Positions 1,542 to 17,553 of a stretch of 64,000 bases of DNA are shown piece by piece. Made by a program: the position numbers and the translations under genes. The notes beneath the pieces were generated by a model. That model made no database searches and was not told the DNA's origin. It saw only the letters and a list, made by a program, of their open reading frames with translations. The stretch is from the sequence record MZ501089. One strand, given 5' to 3'. This DNA is from Escherichia phage KarlGJung. Within the stretch, counting starts at the first letter, position 1, and every line of letters starts with the position of its first letter.

Positions 1542-2198
1542 ATGGCAGCACCTAGAATATCATTTTCGCCCTCTGATATTCTGTTTGGTGTTCTAGATCG
1601 CTTGTTCAAAGATAACGCTACCGGGAAAGTTCTTGCTTCCCGGGTAGCTGTCGTAATTCTTTTATTTATGATGGCGATTGTTTGGTATAGGGGAGATAGT
1701 TTCTTTGAGTACTATAAGCAATCAAAGTATGAAACATACAGTGAAATTATTGAAAAGGAAAGAAATGCACGCTTTGAATCTGTCGCCCTGGAACAACTCC
1801 AGATAGTTCACATATCATCTGAGGCAGACTTTAGTGCGGTGTATTCTTTCCGCCCTAAAAACTTAAACTATTTTGTTGATATTATAGCATACGAAGGAAG
1901 ATTACCTTCAACAATAACTGAAAAATCACTTGGAGGATATCCTGTTGATAAAACTATGGATGAATATACAGTTCATTTAAATGGACGTCATTATTATTCC
2001 AACTCAAAATTTGCTTTTTTACCAACTAAAAAGCCTACTCCCGAAATAAACTACATGTACAGTTGTCCATATTTTAATTTGGATAATATCTATGCTGGAA
2101 CGATAACCATGTACTGGTATAGAAATGATCATATAAGTAATGACCGCCTTGAATCAATATGTGCTCAGGCGGCCAGAATATTAGGAAGGGCTAAATAA
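1542..2198 (+). CDS. t: Holin T
   Basis: 218 aa; SD AAGGAGG; N-terminal cytoplasmic segment, one TM (VAVVILLFMMAIVWY), large periplasmic domain; matches T4 holin length and layout. Confidence 0.85.
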   Translation: MAAPRISFSPSDILFGVLDRLFKDNATGKVLASRVAVVILLFMMAIVWYRGDSFFEYYKQSKYETYSEIIEKERNARFESVALEQLQIVHISSEADFSAVYSFRPKNLNYFVDIIAYEGRLPSTITEKSLGGYPVDKTMDEYTVHLNGRHYYSNSKFAFLPTKKPTPEINYMYSCPYFNLDNIYAGTITMYWYRNDHISNDRLESICAQAARILGRAK

Positions 2199-2471
2199 TT
2201 ATTTGTTCGTATACATCTCTAGATATCGATATACACCCTCAAAACCCTCGTTGAATTCGTCGATGAGGGTTTTCTTATCTTCTTGAGTTAATTCAGAAAC
2301 AATTTTACGGAATGAATTCTGATTTAATTTTCTACCTTCATGCGTTACTCCAATCTCATTCAGAAATGCAATAAAATTAGCACGATTCTCAACAATATCT
2401 TCTCTGGAAAATTTAATCAAAATAGACGCAACAGTAATAATTTCACGAACTGTATCAATGTTTTTATTCAT
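2199..2471 (-). CDS. asiA: Anti-sigma-70 factor AsiA
   Basis: 90 aa MNKNIDTVREIITVASILIKFSREDIVENRANFIAFLNEIGV...; convergent with t with no intergenic nucleotides. Confidence 0.85.
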   Translation of the reverse strand: MNKNIDTVREIITVASILIKFSREDIVENRANFIAFLNEIGVTHEGRKLNQNSFRKIVSELTQEDKKTLIDEFNEGFEGVYRYLEMYTNK

Positions 2472-2483
2472 TAACTATACCAC

Positions 2484-2636
2484 TCAATTAGTTGACTTTG
2501 TTATAATATCATCAGACGTTTGATTTGTAAACTGGTCTGTGCTATTTTCTTCAAAAATTTTTTCTACGAATTCCTTGAACGACTTACGTTCCTGAGCTAC
2601 ATTATGCTCGATTACTTTTTCAAGATTATGACTCAT
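2484..2636 (-). CDS. Hypothetical 50 aa protein (below track cutoff)
   Basis: Hand-translated MSHNLEKVIEHNVAQERKSFKEFVEKIFEENSTDQFTNQTSDDIITKSTN; its ATG overlaps the upstream stop (ATGA). Confidence 0.3.
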   Translation of the reverse strand: MSHNLEKVIEHNVAQERKSFKEFVEKIFEENSTDQFTNQTSDDIITKSTN

Positions 2637-2911
2637 TCGAAATAATCTTCAATTTCATAATCATGGACATAAATCATTATAGTTTTTAATACATCATCAA
2701 TACTTTTTCCTGGAGCTGGAATTACGTAAAAATATCCTGCTTTTGAGAGGTCTTTATAAGTTCCAATCAAGAAATCATTATTCTCAAGATGTAACTCTTC
2801 AACTAATTCATTGACAATTGAATGGTATAGGTTTGGTAGAAACTTATATAGCTTTTCTAGAATATCAATTTTGATTGTGTATTGAACCACGGACTGAGAA
2901 TCAATAATCAT
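2633..2911 (-). CDS. arn: Arn-like acidic protein (candidate anti-restriction DNA mimic, McrBC inhibitor in T4)
   Basis: 92 aa, 16 Asp/Glu vs 7 Lys, SD AGGGGAAGG; size and position (after asiA) as T4 arn; sequence identity not verified. Confidence 0.5.
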   Translation of the reverse strand: MIIDSQSVVQYTIKIDILEKLYKFLPNLYHSIVNELVEELHLENNDFLIGTYKDLSKAGYFYVIPAPGKSIDDVLKTIMIYVHDYEIEDYFE

Positions 2912-2988
2912 AGACCTTCCCCTTATGTTTCTGTTTGCGATTAGATTCTTTAAACGCTTTCTTCTTATCCTTATGGACAGAAGCTTTA

Positions 2989-3213
2989 TTAAAATTGTGT
3001 TTTGCGACTAAATTGTTCATAGTGCTGAATTACCTCTCTCAAACACTTGCATGTGAATGAAAACTTTTTAGCTACACCACATTCAAATATATGTTCTCTT
3101 AAATCACGTGTGTCAGTATATCCCATCTCAACAATAAAATGTCTTATTAGATTTTTATCTTTATCATTGAGAGAATTAAAATAATCGGATTTTGAATTAA
3201 TTTCCCTGGCCAA
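2989..3213 (-). CDS. Hypothetical protein, 74 aa
   Basis: Track ORF on early strand in the arn-motA interval. Confidence 0.4.
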   Translation of the reverse strand: MAREINSKSDYFNSLNDKDKNLIRHFIVEMGYTDTRDLREHIFECGVAKKFSFTCKCLREVIQHYEQFSRKTQF

Positions 3214-3493
3214 ATTGAATCACCTTCAGTTGACGTTTTAGTTCTTTTATCATTTCTTCGTTCATCGCAATATAAAGATCGCGTAAAGCAGGTTTTAACA
3301 TTCCATTTACTGGAGAACTAAATGGACATACATAATCTTTTCCTACGAGCTTTTTGGTGAATTCCATATCACAGAACTGAAATGCCGGTTCATTGGCATA
3401 AATTCCCCAATTAGTTGACATCATTTTATTGGCATATTCCAACGCCTGGATTTGATTCTTAATTCCATCAATTTGAAACTTTTTAATATTCAT
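3197..3493 (-). CDS. Hypothetical protein, 98 aa
   Basis: Track ORF on early strand; stop overlaps next start. Confidence 0.45.
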   Translation of the reverse strand: MNIKKFQIDGIKNQIQALEYANKMMSTNWGIYANEPAFQFCDMEFTKKLVGKDYVCPFSSPVNGMLKPALRDLYIAMNEEMIKELKRQLKVIQFGQGN

Positions 3494-3954
3494 TAGTAAA
3501 GGTCCTCAGAGTAAAGTTCTTTTTCACTACCACCGCGTTCAATACGTACTTGTCCGGCGTAAGTTGCAATAATCATTGCTTCTTCACGTGTCCAGTAATT
3601 GCTATACTGATCAATAAACCCTTGGTCATCATCACAAACTTGCTGAGTAACTAATTGGGGTTTAACTACATCTAAAACTTCTGCCATATCTTTAGAATAA
3701 TGACGAGCACCTGGAATAACAAGAGTTCGTCCATCTTTTAATTTAAAACGGTTGGCGGCACAAACAATTCGTCGTTGATACTTTTGGTTTTCATCCCAGT
3801 ATGCGGTCTGCCAACAGATTTCAGGAACTTCTTTTAGAATATCTTCTTCTGTGCATTTATAACCATGCGCTTTAAATTTTTCAACAAGACTTTCTGGAGT
3901 TTCACGACATAAAGGAACATTCAGCATTTTTAAACGATTAATAAATGGGTTCAT
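3493..3954 (-). CDS. Hypothetical protein, 153 aa
   Basis: Track ORF on early strand; stop/start overlaps with neighbours. Confidence 0.5.
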
Positions 3955-4280
3955 TTAAACCATCCTTTAATACGTTGCCATAAAGTTTTCTGTTGAGCTT
4001 TGTTAACACCAATTGAACGAATAACTGGTTGAGATTCCTGAAATTCTTTATAATCAGCAAGGTAAATTTCGTAAGCTGCATCCGTAAATGAACTTATCGC
4101 TGCCATAAAATTATTGCGAATACCTACTGGAGCATCTTTACTTTCACGAATAATCATGTATTTACCAGTCTTAATCTTTACGATAGTTCCAAGATAAGCT
4201 CCATGGTACCAGATGTCCCAACCCTCTTGAGTAGGTTCTACACAACGACGAAGTTCATTGACAATTTCTAACTTGTTCAT
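3951..4280 (-). CDS. Hypothetical protein, 109 aa (immediately downstream of motA)
   Basis: Track ORF; stop overlaps next start. Confidence 0.45.
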
Positions 4281-5031: not shown

Positions 5032-5259
5032 TTACTTAATGTTCAGATTACGAACTTCGATTTCGTCTTCATGGGCAAAATCAAACTGTTTGAATTCTGT
5101 GTCACCTTTAAATTTAAAAATCATTGTGAAGAAAGTCAGAACACCAGGTTTTTCTTCACGAACTCCACAGATATCATATTCAATACCATCTACAACCAGT
5201 TTGTTAGCAGTCAGAGCATTTTTAGCTTTAACGATTTCGTTTTCGATTTTAAATTTCAT
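5032..5259 (-). CDS. Hypothetical protein, 75 aa
   Basis: Track ORF with own early promoter and ATG start. Confidence 0.45.
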   Translation of the reverse strand: MKFKIENEIVKAKNALTANKLVVDGIEYDICGVREEKPGVLTFFTMIFKFKGDTEFKQFDFAHEDEIEVRNLNIK

Positions 5260-5308
5260 TTTTTGTATCTCCGGGTTGTTTGTTTCAGTTCATTTATTTG
5301 ATAGTTGT

Positions 5309-5394: not shown

Positions 5395-5544
5395 TTACTG
5401 CATGACTGTGATAACTGTCATGATAACACGTTGAATTCCGAACGCAAGAAGACCTCCTGCTACGGCAGGAACAACACCTAAACCCGCCAGTAAAATGCCA
5501 CCAGATACTAATGCAGCGCTTGTGATACCAATGAATGGACTCAT
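5395..5544 (-). CDS. 49 aa glycine-zipper membrane peptide (below track cutoff)
   Basis: Hand-translated MSPFIGITSAALVSGGILLAGLGVVPAVAGGLLAFGIQRVIMTVITVMQ; ATG overlaps gp52 TGA (ATGA); terminator follows. Confidence 0.45.
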   Translation of the reverse strand: MSPFIGITSAALVSGGILLAGLGVVPAVAGGLLAFGIQRVIMTVITVMQ

Positions 5545-6869
5545 TTGATTTCCTCTAAATCTTTGGTGTATTCTGTAACTACATCAGTAGTTTTCCAATA
5601 TTCGTTTTCTTCTTTTTTGGCTTTAGCTTCTTCAGCAAGTTTCTTTGCTTCGTCGGAAGTCATATGAAAAATGTTCATTCCAACTAGTTTATCAACATAA
5701 GAAGAATACATATCAATTTTAGAAAGTTCTTCGGTCAGTTCTTTGCGAGTTTTACCTTGTACAACAATTTCACCTGAAATTACTTTCTTAATGAAATGTG
5801 CCTTGGCAAAAGCTAAACGAAATGCTGATTCAGTTTCTTTGATTTTGTTATCAATTCGTTTTTGGACATAAGTTTTACGAACTTCAACGAAGTCTTTGAT
5901 TAAATCAACTACATTATCGTAAACTTGCAGCTTTCCTTTCTCATTAATGACGGTAATATTCTGGGAACGACGCTCAATCAACCCGAAGTCTTTCATAATT
6001 TTTGCATGGCGTTCTTCTTCATTATCGCTCAAAGAGTATTCTTTTCGGAATTTAACTTTGAAGCCAAAGCCATGCTCACCACAAGCATCATCCCATGTAA
6101 TGAAGCCTTTATCTTCAAGCGGGTCTAAGATTTTACTCACATAAGTTTCACGATCATACTTATATGGAATCTCAGTGATATGCATTTGAGTTCGTGAAGT
6201 AAACTTATATGTTCCACGAATTTCATATTGCCCATCAATTTCAACGACTTCACCACGAAATTCTGGGAATTCTACCTTCGGTTTAGTTACTTTCTTTCCT
6301 TGAAGAGCTTGCAGTACAGCTTTCTTGACAGAAGAAACACTATGAGGAAGAATGTAAGTTGCATAACCAGTTGCAATACCGGAAACGCCATTAAGAAGAA
6401 CAGTAGGAATAATAGGCAAATAGAAAGCAGGCGGAATGTGTTCTTTATCTTGATGTACTGGAGCATATTCAGTATCTTTATATACGTTATAGAAATTTTT
6501 ACTTACACGAGCAAAAATATAACGACTTGCTGCTGCCTTTTGGACAGTACGAGAACCAAAGTTTCCTTGACCGTCTAACAGAGGAAAGTTATTATTCCAA
6601 GTGTTAGCCATCAAAGCACCTGCGTCTTGCGCAGAGTTTTCACCATGATGATATCCAAGGTCCGCTACACCGCCTGCGATAGAAGCGAGTTTGTGAAACT
6701 TATCTTTATTTCCTCGTGCCAAATCAAGAGCTCGAGCAATAACAAATCGTTGAACTGGCTTAAATCCGTCAATCATATTTGGAATGGCACGATTTTCAAC
6801 CGTGTACATAGCATAAGCCAATGCTTCATTATCAATGATACTTTTTAAATCACGATTATTCAGTTGCAT
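5541..6869 (-). CDS. 52: DNA topoisomerase II medium subunit gp52 (GyrA-like)
   Basis: 442 aa; MQLNNRDLKSIIDNEALAYAMYTVENRAIPNMIDGFKPVQRFV...; active-site region ASRYIFA. Confidence 0.9.
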   Translation of the reverse strand: MQLNNRDLKSIIDNEALAYAMYTVENRAIPNMIDGFKPVQRFVIARALDLARGNKDKFHKLASIAGGVADLGYHHGENSAQDAGALMANTWNNNFPLLDGQGNFGSRTVQKAAASRYIFARVSKNFYNVYKDTEYAPVHQDKEHIPPAFYLPIIPTVLLNGVSGIATGYATYILPHSVSSVKKAVLQALQGKKVTKPKVEFPEFRGEVVEIDGQYEIRGTYKFTSRTQMHITEIPYKYDRETYVSKILDPLEDKGFITWDDACGEHGFGFKVKFRKEYSLSDNEEERHAKIMKDFGLIERRSQNITVINEKGKLQVYDNVVDLIKDFVEVRKTYVQKRIDNKIKETESAFRLAFAKAHFIKKVISGEIVVQGKTRKELTEELSKIDMYSSYVDKLVGMNIFHMTSDEAKKLAEEAKAKKEENEYWKTTDVVTEYTKDLEEIK

Positions 6870-7253: not shown

Positions 7254-7711
7254 TAATACGCCTGCAAAACGAATTTAAAATTATCAGCCAACATACGGTT
7301 CATTTCTTCAAGTGTTTGATACTCAGAATGATGATTACGAGTAAACGCTAAAGCTAACTGTCCTTTTCCAAATCCCGTCGTCAGAGGTTTCATCTTAGAA
7401 GCAGGCAGATAAAATACTGTGTATACCATATTGTTATTTGCAATAGTACATGCAAGCTGAGACCGACGTTGACGAATATGACTTAGAACTGCACTGAATC
7501 CTTGCTTAGAACGCTGATTACCTACATAAAATCGTGCAGACACACATGGATTACTAAATGGACGACCATCTAATTTACTTACTAAAAAATAAAATCCAGG
7601 TTTAGATAAAATATCTTTATGCGGAGTTCCCAAAAACCACTCACCACCCTTGATTGTACCAATAACAGTAGCGCCTGCATTATTCAGATCAGTAACAGTC
7701 ATGTATTTCAT
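7253..7711 (-). CDS. ndd: Nucleoid disruption protein Ndd
   Basis: Track ORF 7253..7759 trimmed to internal ATG with SD GAGGA: [43 protein letters not shown]... Confidence 0.7.
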
Positions 7712-15136: not shown

Positions 15137-15154
15137 AAAGGCCCGAAGGCCTTT
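15137..15154 (-). other. UUCG-tetraloop hairpin upstream of gene 39
   Basis: aaaggcc-cgaa-ggccttt. Confidence 0.5.
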
Positions 15155-15794: not shown

Positions 15795-15971
15795 TTACCC
15801 TTTAAGTAAGTCGTAAAATCCACCATTCACATGCTTAGGAGCAGAAGGCCGACGAGTAGACAAACGATGACATTTAGGGCAAACATCATTTTCTCGTTCA
15901 GAAATCTTTTTAATTTTTTCATATTCATGCCCGCAATCTTCGGATTGGCATTTATAATCATACATTGGCAT
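15795..15971 (-). CDS. FmdB-like CxxC zinc-ribbon protein, 58 aa (below track cutoff)
   Basis: Hand-translated MPMYDYKCQSEDCGHEYEKIKKISERENDVCPKCHRLSTRRPSAPKHVNGGFYDLLKG; SD AAGGAA. Confidence 0.5.
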   Translation of the reverse strand: MPMYDYKCQSEDCGHEYEKIKKISERENDVCPKCHRLSTRRPSAPKHVNGGFYDLLKG

Positions 15972-15973
15972 AA

Positions 15974-16393
15974 TTATTCCTTAAAGTGTGCTTTCAGCAT
16001 TTGATACAAGGACCATGCCTGTTCATTATTTTCAATAGTAACTTTCATGACAGGAAATTCTGTGAAATCTTCTATTTGTTCTTGCTCTTCCTGCTCTTGT
16101 TCTTCAGCTGCCTGGTATGGATTTTCCACTTCATCAAAGAATTCAGCTTCGCTAGTAGAAAGCCAAATAAAATCTTCATCCAAAATATCTTTACCGGAGG
16201 ATAATGCCAATCTTCCAGTAGATGTCACAATTTTAGTAGGACGACCAAGATAGTCAATATCTATAACTTTAAAAGGTTCCATACCTAAACGTCGTGCATA
16301 AATTCCGTTTTCAGTATGGTCTTTAATAAAAGCTTCTTGAGCTTGTTTATTTTTAAATTGATACCATTTATTAACTTCAAATTTAATAGCCAT
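15974..16393 (-). CDS. Hypothetical acidic protein, 139 aa
   Basis: Track ORF; [10 protein letters not shown] acidic tract. Confidence 0.45.
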
Positions 16394-16608
16394 TAATAAA
16401 TTTCCTTCCAGTAAGTTGTTCCATCTTCAGTAATTTCACGAAATACACCATAAATTGGTTGTTTATCACCAACCTTTTCATACACATAAACCGAAGTCAA
16501 GTGAGTAAACTTGATGGTGTGTTCCTTTTGAACTACTACCAAATCTGGATTGAATAATACATCTTCAAATTCGTCATTAGTGCAGTTCTGAACAATTTTA
16601 CGTTTCAT
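16393..16608 (-). CDS. Hypothetical protein, 71 aa
   Basis: Track ORF; start overlaps upstream stop. Confidence 0.4.
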
Positions 16609-17480: not shown

Positions 17481-17553
17481 AATTATCTCTCACTTGTTAA
17501 AAAGATTTTATACTCCGCAGGACCATTATACTCTGGTCCCAAGAGTTTGTAAA

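Follow-up and report, generated by a model that had tools for sequence, protein, structure and literature searches.

Gene 39.2 of an Escherichia Tequatrovirus: a conserved early zinc-ribbon protein most likely acting on host GroEL

The window analyzed here, i.e., a stretch of 64,000 nucleotides of Escherichia phage KarlGJung (MZ501089), contains on its minus strand an ORF of 58 codons that, judging from its sequence and position, is the orthologue of gene 39.2 of phage T4, which encodes Gp39.2 (a.k.a. NwgI). The gene is truly protein-coding and evolves under strong purifying selection; its product is an early zinc-ribbon protein that most likely acts on host GroEL. An earlier sequence-only reading of this DNA called the ORF unannotated and treated it as unexplored. 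In fact, it is annotated in Shigella phage JK38, T4, RB69, RB49, RB43 and hundreds of other records, and a genetic role in the modulation of host GroEL has been published for the T4 and RB69 versions, as relayed in later papers. Thus, 39.2 is an already known, named and annotated T4-type early gene, and for the window itself there is little novelty. It does constitute a cautionary case of annotation. No experiment in the literature searched backs the label "FmdB-like transcriptional regulator," whereas the one tested phenotype, as later papers report it, lies in modulating the host chaperonin. In the T4 reference genome, the gene model is still cut short at 45 aa.

The 39.2 Gene and Its Surroundings

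The ORF of 58 aa that had been reported from the sequence is present as described, starting with ATG at 15971-15969 and ending with TAA at 15797-15795; its product reads MPMYDYKCQSEDCGHEYEKIKKISERENDVCPKCHRLSTRRPSAPKHVNGGFYDLLKG. A good Shine-Dalgarno sequence had been noted as well, and AAGGA is indeed found six nucleotides ahead of the ATG, within the last codons of goF (Table 1). It is unchanged in an alignment of the window with three T4 records and is the putative ribosome-binding site of 39.2. The goF stop codon TAA (15974-15976) and the start codon of 39.2 together make TAATTATG, and an identical junction connects the 3' end of 39.2 with the next gene. Translationally coupled early genes of phages are typically packed in this way, and 39.2 may likewise be coupled to its neighbors. 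Two other ORFs overlapping 39.2 were dismissed: one of 44 aa on the minus strand (15827-15961) lies inside a frame under strong purifying selection, and one of 57 aa on the plus strand (15831-16004) is antisense to that frame.

The genes on the minus strand are arranged in the order motB, an ORF of 93 aa, cef, goF, 39.2, a goF paralogue of 123 aa, 39.1 and the topoisomerase gene 39. The best match to a sigma-70-like promoter that a consensus scan found on the coding strand lies upstream of motB, and it probably starts an early transcript that runs through ORF93, cef, goF, 39.2 and the goF paralogue to 39.1. The only terminator-like site found within this transcript is a weak hairpin of 5 bp at 16457-16474. 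The GC-rich hairpin directly after the stop codon of 39.1, which has a weak T-tail on the minus strand (AGCTTTATGATT), is a putative terminator and probably marks the end of the transcription unit.

Several neighboring features deserve mention in their own right. Gene 39.2 is flanked by two genes of the goF family, as the 123-aa ORF directly downstream is a paralogue of goF; the E-values of the two against phrog_622 are 6.6e-30 and 1.1e-40. This copy, located between 39.2 and 39.1, is lacking in T4, whereas 418 phage records have it. The 39.1 orthologue encodes 89 aa (phrog_902) with a lipoprotein-like start, ...AALVLAVSLVGC, which suggests a small phage lipoprotein encoded next to cytoplasmic early proteins. 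Gene 39 consists of one ORF of 606 aa; RB69 and JK38 also have it in one piece. The window shows neither the division into genes 39 and 60 that is specific to T4 nor the mobA remnant and the gene 60 translational bypass that go with it. Between the hairpin and gene 39, the arrangement tAGCTTTA, 12 nt, TATAAT resembles the MotA-dependent middle promoters of T4, and a candidate MotA box lies at about -30.

Table 1. Coordinates of gene 39.2 and of neighboring features in the window.
Feature	Position	Strand	Basis or remarks
Sigma-70-like promoter, TTTACA-17-TATAAT	17525..17553	-	Upstream of motB; 11/12 consensus matches
goF	15974-16393	-	phrog_622
Putative Shine-Dalgarno sequence, AAGGA	15978..15982	-	6 nt upstream of the 39.2 ATG, within the last goF codons
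CDS of the gene 39.2 orthologue (Gp39.2/NwgI; FmdB-family zinc ribbon)	15795..15971	-	ORF, profiles, orthology, dN/dS
First zinc knuckle, C8-Q-S-E-D-C13 (C-x4-C)	15933..15950	-	Alignments; putative zinc binding, from the family
Second zinc knuckle, C31-P-K-C34 (C-x2-C)	15870..15881	-	C31 and C34 invariant or nearly so in alignments
C-terminal motif, S43-APKHVNGGFY-D54	15810..15845	-	Counterpart of cellular FmdB FKGSGFYxTDY; putative role
goF paralogue, 123 aa	15421-15792	-	phrog_622
39.1 orthologue, 89 aa	15155-15424	-	phrog_902
Putative terminator, GC-rich hairpin AAAGGCC-TTCG-GGCCTTT	15137..15154	-	Directly after the 39.1 stop codon
Middle promoter-like segment	15100-15135	-	Between hairpin and gene 39; candidate MotA box
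Topoisomerase gene 39, 606 aa	13267-15087	-	Single ORF

Orthology to Gene 39.2 of T4

The window belongs to a Tequatrovirus, as other genomes of this genus match it at 95-98.5% identity. The 1.6-kb stretch around 39.2 is matched by 625 T4-type records and is 98.5% identical to that of Shigella phage JK38, in which the order of the genes is the same and the corresponding gene (JK38_00006) is annotated as "zinc ribbon domain-containing protein." The gene order in T4 is goF-39.2-39.1-39, with 39.2 occupying the slot of the window ORF. Because of this position between goF and gene 39, the ORF is considered the orthologue of T4 39.2. RB69 (Mosigvirus), RB49 (Krischvirus) and RB43 (Pseudotevenvirus) each possess a homologue of 53-59 aa ahead of their gene 39; among these three phages, goF adjoins the homologue only in RB69.

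The window protein and the 58-aa Gp39.2 of T4T, a re-sequenced T4, are identical at 47 of 58 positions (81%; no gaps, E = 5e-37). They have the same length, slot, four cysteines and SAPKHVNGGFYDLLKG tail, but differ by 11 substitutions, e.g., G14/H15 for A/K and S38-T-R-R-P for A-V-R-L-V. Since the identity of the window protein is about 91-93% with the RB69 protein and 79-81% with the T4-type allele, this Tequatrovirus carries an RB69-like allele of 39.2, which is nearer to the Mosigvirus form than to that of T4.

The T4 reference sequence itself (RefSeq NC_000866; AF158101, originally M89919) is annotated with a 39.2 gene of 45 aa. When the region was aligned (L002, positions 5398-5839 of NC_000866; L036 and L037, positions 193-632 of T4T, HM137666, and of MT984581, two T4 genomes re-sequenced independently) together with the window, the reference was found to contain one extra T (GCT TCC TAA vs. 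GCT CCT AAG) as well as several substitutions. All of the re-sequenced T4 genome records listed differ by ~3% from the reference over a stretch of 300 bp, and in HM137666 and MT984581 the gene is annotated as 177 nt and 58 aa. Because these two re-sequenced genomes lack the extra T and encode 58 aa, the 45-aa model is the result of a one-base sequence error, and it loses precisely the conserved C-terminal motif discussed below. Gene 39.1 is annotated as 198 nt in the reference vs. 261 nt in T4T and MT984581.

Conservation and Selection

A tblastn search found 39.2 in 885 phage records, 851 of which match with a coverage of at least 80%. When eleven distinct nucleotide versions, i.e., those of the window, JK38, RB69 and IMG/VR contigs, were compared by the Nei-Gojobori method, dN/dS was 0.02-0.14 wherever the ratio was informative, with dS being often saturated. 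The few uninformative pairs were either near-identical without non-synonymous changes or had saturated synonymous sites.

The length of 58 aa is by itself uninformative in this AT-rich window, which contains dozens of comparable ORFs in 6 kb. As many ORFs of similar length are thus expected by chance, one might regard this one as a chance ORF or as a decaying remnant without function, particularly as frameshifted versions of 45-47 aa exist in a few database records (Shigella phage vB_SsoM_113, Salmonella phage Manna and the T4 reference); each is due to a sequencing error or represents an occasional pseudogene. However, the low dN/dS ratios, the number of well-covered records, the position, which is kept in four genera, and the profile matches (E ~1e-11; see below) leave this reading a negligible probability, and a phenotype of a 39.2 deletion has been published as well, as relayed in later papers. 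Because of the profile E-values, the conservation in 885 records and dN/dS, the gene is beyond chance, and the conservation statistics have already refuted the chance-ORF reading.

A Zinc Ribbon of the FmdB Family

The sequence-only reading had assigned the protein to the FmdB family of zinc-ribbon proteins and had proposed an HMM search as a check. In this search, the protein scored 45.7 bits (E = 6.7e-12) against Pfam PF09723 (Zn_ribbon_8) and 44.9 bits (E = 8.7e-12) against NCBIfam TIGR02605 (FmdB family zinc ribbon protein; CxxC_CxxC_SSSS), both above the curated cut-offs of 34.4 bits (gathering) and 31.3 bits, respectively, which bears out the assignment. In PHROGs, the protein is assigned to phrog_1076. 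It did not reach the cut-off of the RPWMISH domain protein model NF053663 (31.2 vs. 120 bits), of which only the shared zinc-ribbon N-terminus matches.

The N-terminus, MPMYDYKC, shows the FmdB signature M-P-x-Y-[DE]-Y-x-C, as had been recognized in the form MPxY(D/E)Y(K/R)C. M1 and C8 do not vary among 56 family members, and P2, Y4 and Y6 hardly do. The four cysteines, C8, C13, C31 and C34, are arranged as C-x4-C, 17 residues, C-x2-C. Hence, of the CxxC-N17-CxxC pattern proposed earlier, the spacer and the second knuckle are correct, but the first knuckle is C-x4-C. As residues 1-41 of the protein align to positions 1-39 of the Pfam profile, the protein has an insertion of two residues. In three alignments (A1, A4 and A5), C8 never varies and C13 hardly ever does. 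By analogy with the family, this four-cysteine ribbon is predicted to bind zinc. The pattern of zinc ligands differs among the phage homologues: the first knuckle is C-E-E-H in RB49 (5128-5301), with a His in place of the second Cys, and C-x-C in the L021 and L023 types, and the second knuckle is C-E-C in RB43 (7453-7614).

A second conserved element follows the ribbon. It is kept in four genera of the Straboviridae in the forms NGGFYD, NGGYYD, KGGFPY and HGGFYD. For comparison, one genome per species was scanned with the pattern MP[MLT]Y[DT]YKC, which yielded 80 cellular loci, a sample biased by the pattern. A GSGFY-type motif after the ribbon is present in all but one (L114) of these 80 homologues. 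Along the pattern A-P-x(3-6)-G-x-G-[FW]-Y, the C-terminal motif of the window protein aligns with the ...GAGxIFKGSGFYxTDY of the cellular proteins, and also with RB49, RB43 and further phage forms. Thus, the phage-encoded protein shares with the cellular FmdB proteins the MPxYDYKC start, two Cys knuckles ~17 residues apart and A-P...G-x-G-F-Y after the ribbon. It differs from them by the C-x4-C instead of C-x2-C in the first knuckle and by the absence of a low-complexity tail rich in Ser, Lys and Ala, as it ends four residues past GGFYD. Phage Gp39.2 thus amounts to the bare conserved core of the FmdB family and lacks the long tail, rich in Ser and Lys, that the cellular members have. The G-G-F-Y-x-L-L tail also resembles the A-G-G-I-V-L of the GroES mobile loop; this is mere resemblance, on which no claim is based.

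An AlphaFold model built on an alignment of 56 sequences has a mean pLDDT of 74.6 and shows four short beta strands around the knuckles (residues 3-8, 16-20, 28-30 and 37-40) with pLDDT ~84, followed from about residue 42 by a non-regular tail of low confidence. This moderate-confidence model is consistent with a small zinc ribbon with a flexible tail. A model based on a shallow alignment of seven proteins, which is all that a single-sequence homology search with the 58-aa query yielded, was discarded (pLDDT 50.6, spurious helices). A profile search of PDB sequences revealed no solved homologue; its matches were tandem C2H2 fingers and were spurious, as YKCPECGKSF spans two fingers. A Foldseek search of the PDB with the 56-sequence model gave nothing below E = 0.2, and the weak matches were generic zinc-ribbon modules, such as the N-terminal domain of MCM, RbpA and S27e, which are unusable for deducing a function.

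Modulation of GroEL

Ang and Georgopoulos reportedly first selected the 39.2 gene from RB69, and its homologues from T4, RB43 and RB49 are said to behave alike. The suppression that it exerts is reportedly allele-specific, and its overproduction is said to be toxic. According to a later account, which names Ang and Georgopoulos (Genetics 190:989, 2012) as the source, the product of T4 39.2, a peptide of 58 aa, subtly modulates GroES/GroEL (PMC5153855). Genetic and biochemical studies described there suggest that Gp39.2 moves GroEL toward its open conformation, which can bind GroES cochaperones of both host and phage origin. In the same account, certain groEL mutant hosts block a T4 39.2 deletion mutant completely, but not the wild type. 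Gp39.2 of T4 suppresses phenotypes of groEL and groES mutants, as relayed in later papers. The role in GroEL modulation is transferred to the window allele by homology to the T4 and RB69 proteins, to which it is 81-93% identical, and the protein would have a contact surface for GroEL.

Taken together with the sequence features, the following scenario may be proposed. The 58-residue early protein, a predicted four-cysteine zinc ribbon (C8, C13, C31 and C34) with a short flexible G-G-F-Y tail, probably owes its mRNA to the early promoter ahead of motB, and its translation probably takes place within a series of closely packed and possibly coupled genes, with TAATTATG on both sides. It would then act on the host GroEL chaperonin, as the genetics indicate for the T4 and RB69 proteins, and push it to an open state able to bind a lid, either host GroES or the phage co-chaperonin Gp31. 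Thereby, GroEL-dependent folding could be kept working on hosts in which GroEL/GroES fits the phage poorly. In the literature, as far as relayed, Gp31 of T4, CocO of RB49 and Gp39.2 have a common purpose, i.e., adapting the GroEL machine of the host to the phage. However, Gp31 and CocO are GroES-like heptameric lids, whereas Gp39.2 is a zinc ribbon of 6.6 kDa described as modulating the conformational equilibrium of GroEL rather than serving as a lid. There is no sequence or fold relationship between them, and no Cpn10 match to the window protein was found in the Pfam profile search.

In a time-resolved RNA-seq study, the 39.2 mRNA of T4 is listed in the early class, and the same table records no mass-spectrometric detection of Gp39.2 in infected cells (Class_P = NA; PMC9697503, Table S2). 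The latter is unsurprising for a protein of 6.6 kDa that is represented in the listed reference entry by the 45-aa gene model.

Many records present the protein instead as an "FmdB-like transcriptional regulator," a label propagated by RefSeq, and phrog_1076 is filed under "transcription regulation." Accordingly labeled, Gp39.2 would bind DNA or RNA polymerase and alter early transcription, which could be reconciled with the location of the gene in a neighborhood of early genes for host takeover (motB, goF and srd, among others) and with the weak, non-significant Foldseek match (E ~0.9) to the sigma-binding factor RbpA. However, the label is inherited from the family name, and the name fmdB comes from a gene neighboring formamidase. 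The latter context is seen in Bordetella, where genes for an amide ABC transporter and FmdA_AmdA are followed by one for Zn_ribbon_8. Literature searches on FmdB in zinc-ribbon, phage or chaperone contexts gave incidental mentions only and no experiment behind a role in transcription for any family member. Furthermore, a Pfam profile search detected no recognizable DNA-binding domain in the window protein, and the only experimental phenotype of 39.2 reported in the papers that relay it concerns GroEL. Thus, a function in transcription is very improbable, and an action on GroEL is preferred. The label itself should not be equated with a function.

FmdB Homologues in Cellular Chaperone Operons

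The FmdB family is widespread in bacteria and is annotated almost everywhere as "putative regulatory protein." Gp39.2 is the only experimentally characterized member that we found, and its phenotype, as relayed, concerns GroEL. Among the 80 cellular loci of the pattern-biased sample, 28, all of them in Planctomycetota, have fmdB directly after groES-groEL-dnaJ-grpE on the same strand, as the last or next-to-last gene of the cluster. They span groups such as Phycisphaerales, Sedimentisphaerales, Tepidisphaerales, Pirellulales and Gemmataceae (L039, L041, L042, L044, L050, L052, L068, L072-L075, L077, L078, L081, L085, L086, L089, L097, L099, L109, L110, L112, L115, L116 and others, with fmdB at ~4001). 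In L068, the order of the products by Pfam is Cpn10, Cpn60, DnaJ (three domains), GrpE, Zn_ribbon_8 and YacG, with a gap of 3 nt between grpE and fmdB. An apparent GrpE-FmdB fusion ORF in L097, a locus of a metagenome-assembled genome, was traced to a frameshift in grpE. In one locus of the Bacteroidota (L111), a dnaK gene of 635 aa (2076-3983) is followed after 17 nt by fmdB (4001-4246).

These arrangements also bear on the question whether GroEL is the primary target of Gp39.2. The protein might act on host proteostasis elsewhere, e.g., on DnaK/DnaJ/GrpE or as a general zinc-ribbon holdase or adaptor, in which case the suppression of groEL and groES mutations would be indirect. Indeed, the nearest neighbors of the cellular fmdB genes belong to the Hsp70 system, i.e., grpE and dnaJ in Planctomycetota and dnaK in L111, rather than being groEL itself. 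However, the operons of Planctomycetota contain groES-groEL too, and the suppression by 39.2 is reportedly allele-specific. Moreover, it is only certain groEL mutant hosts that block T4 without 39.2, and the genetic and biochemical studies point to the open/closed equilibrium of GroEL, both according to the account of Georgopoulos (PMC5153855). Hence, a primary target other than GroEL is unlikely, and GroEL is favored as the target of Gp39.2.

A broader possibility is that the whole FmdB/Zn_ribbon_8 family consists of small chaperone accessory factors for GroEL and/or DnaK-DnaJ-GrpE, with Gp39.2 being a captured and minimized copy; at present, this generalization is rather doubtful. The operon context in Planctomycetota agrees with the phage genetics in hinting at chaperones, but this analogy is a lead, not a finding, and the arrangement may go back to a single inherited event in one phylum. 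If the chaperone context holds in a proper survey, it would provide a testable function for a large uncharacterized family of zinc-ribbon proteins.

The fmdB loci of other lineages show no link to chaperone genes, which speaks against the broader reading: in Bordetella the neighbor is formamidase, elsewhere there are unrelated housekeeping genes, and in one further locus fmdB is accompanied by unrelated genes. With names read from cluster representative sequences, the neighbors in Ignavibacteriota are apparently prs, ctc and pth, on the opposite strand, and those in Saganbacteria cysS and serS, whilst rsmD- and coaD-like genes are found near fmdB in some Bacteroidota.
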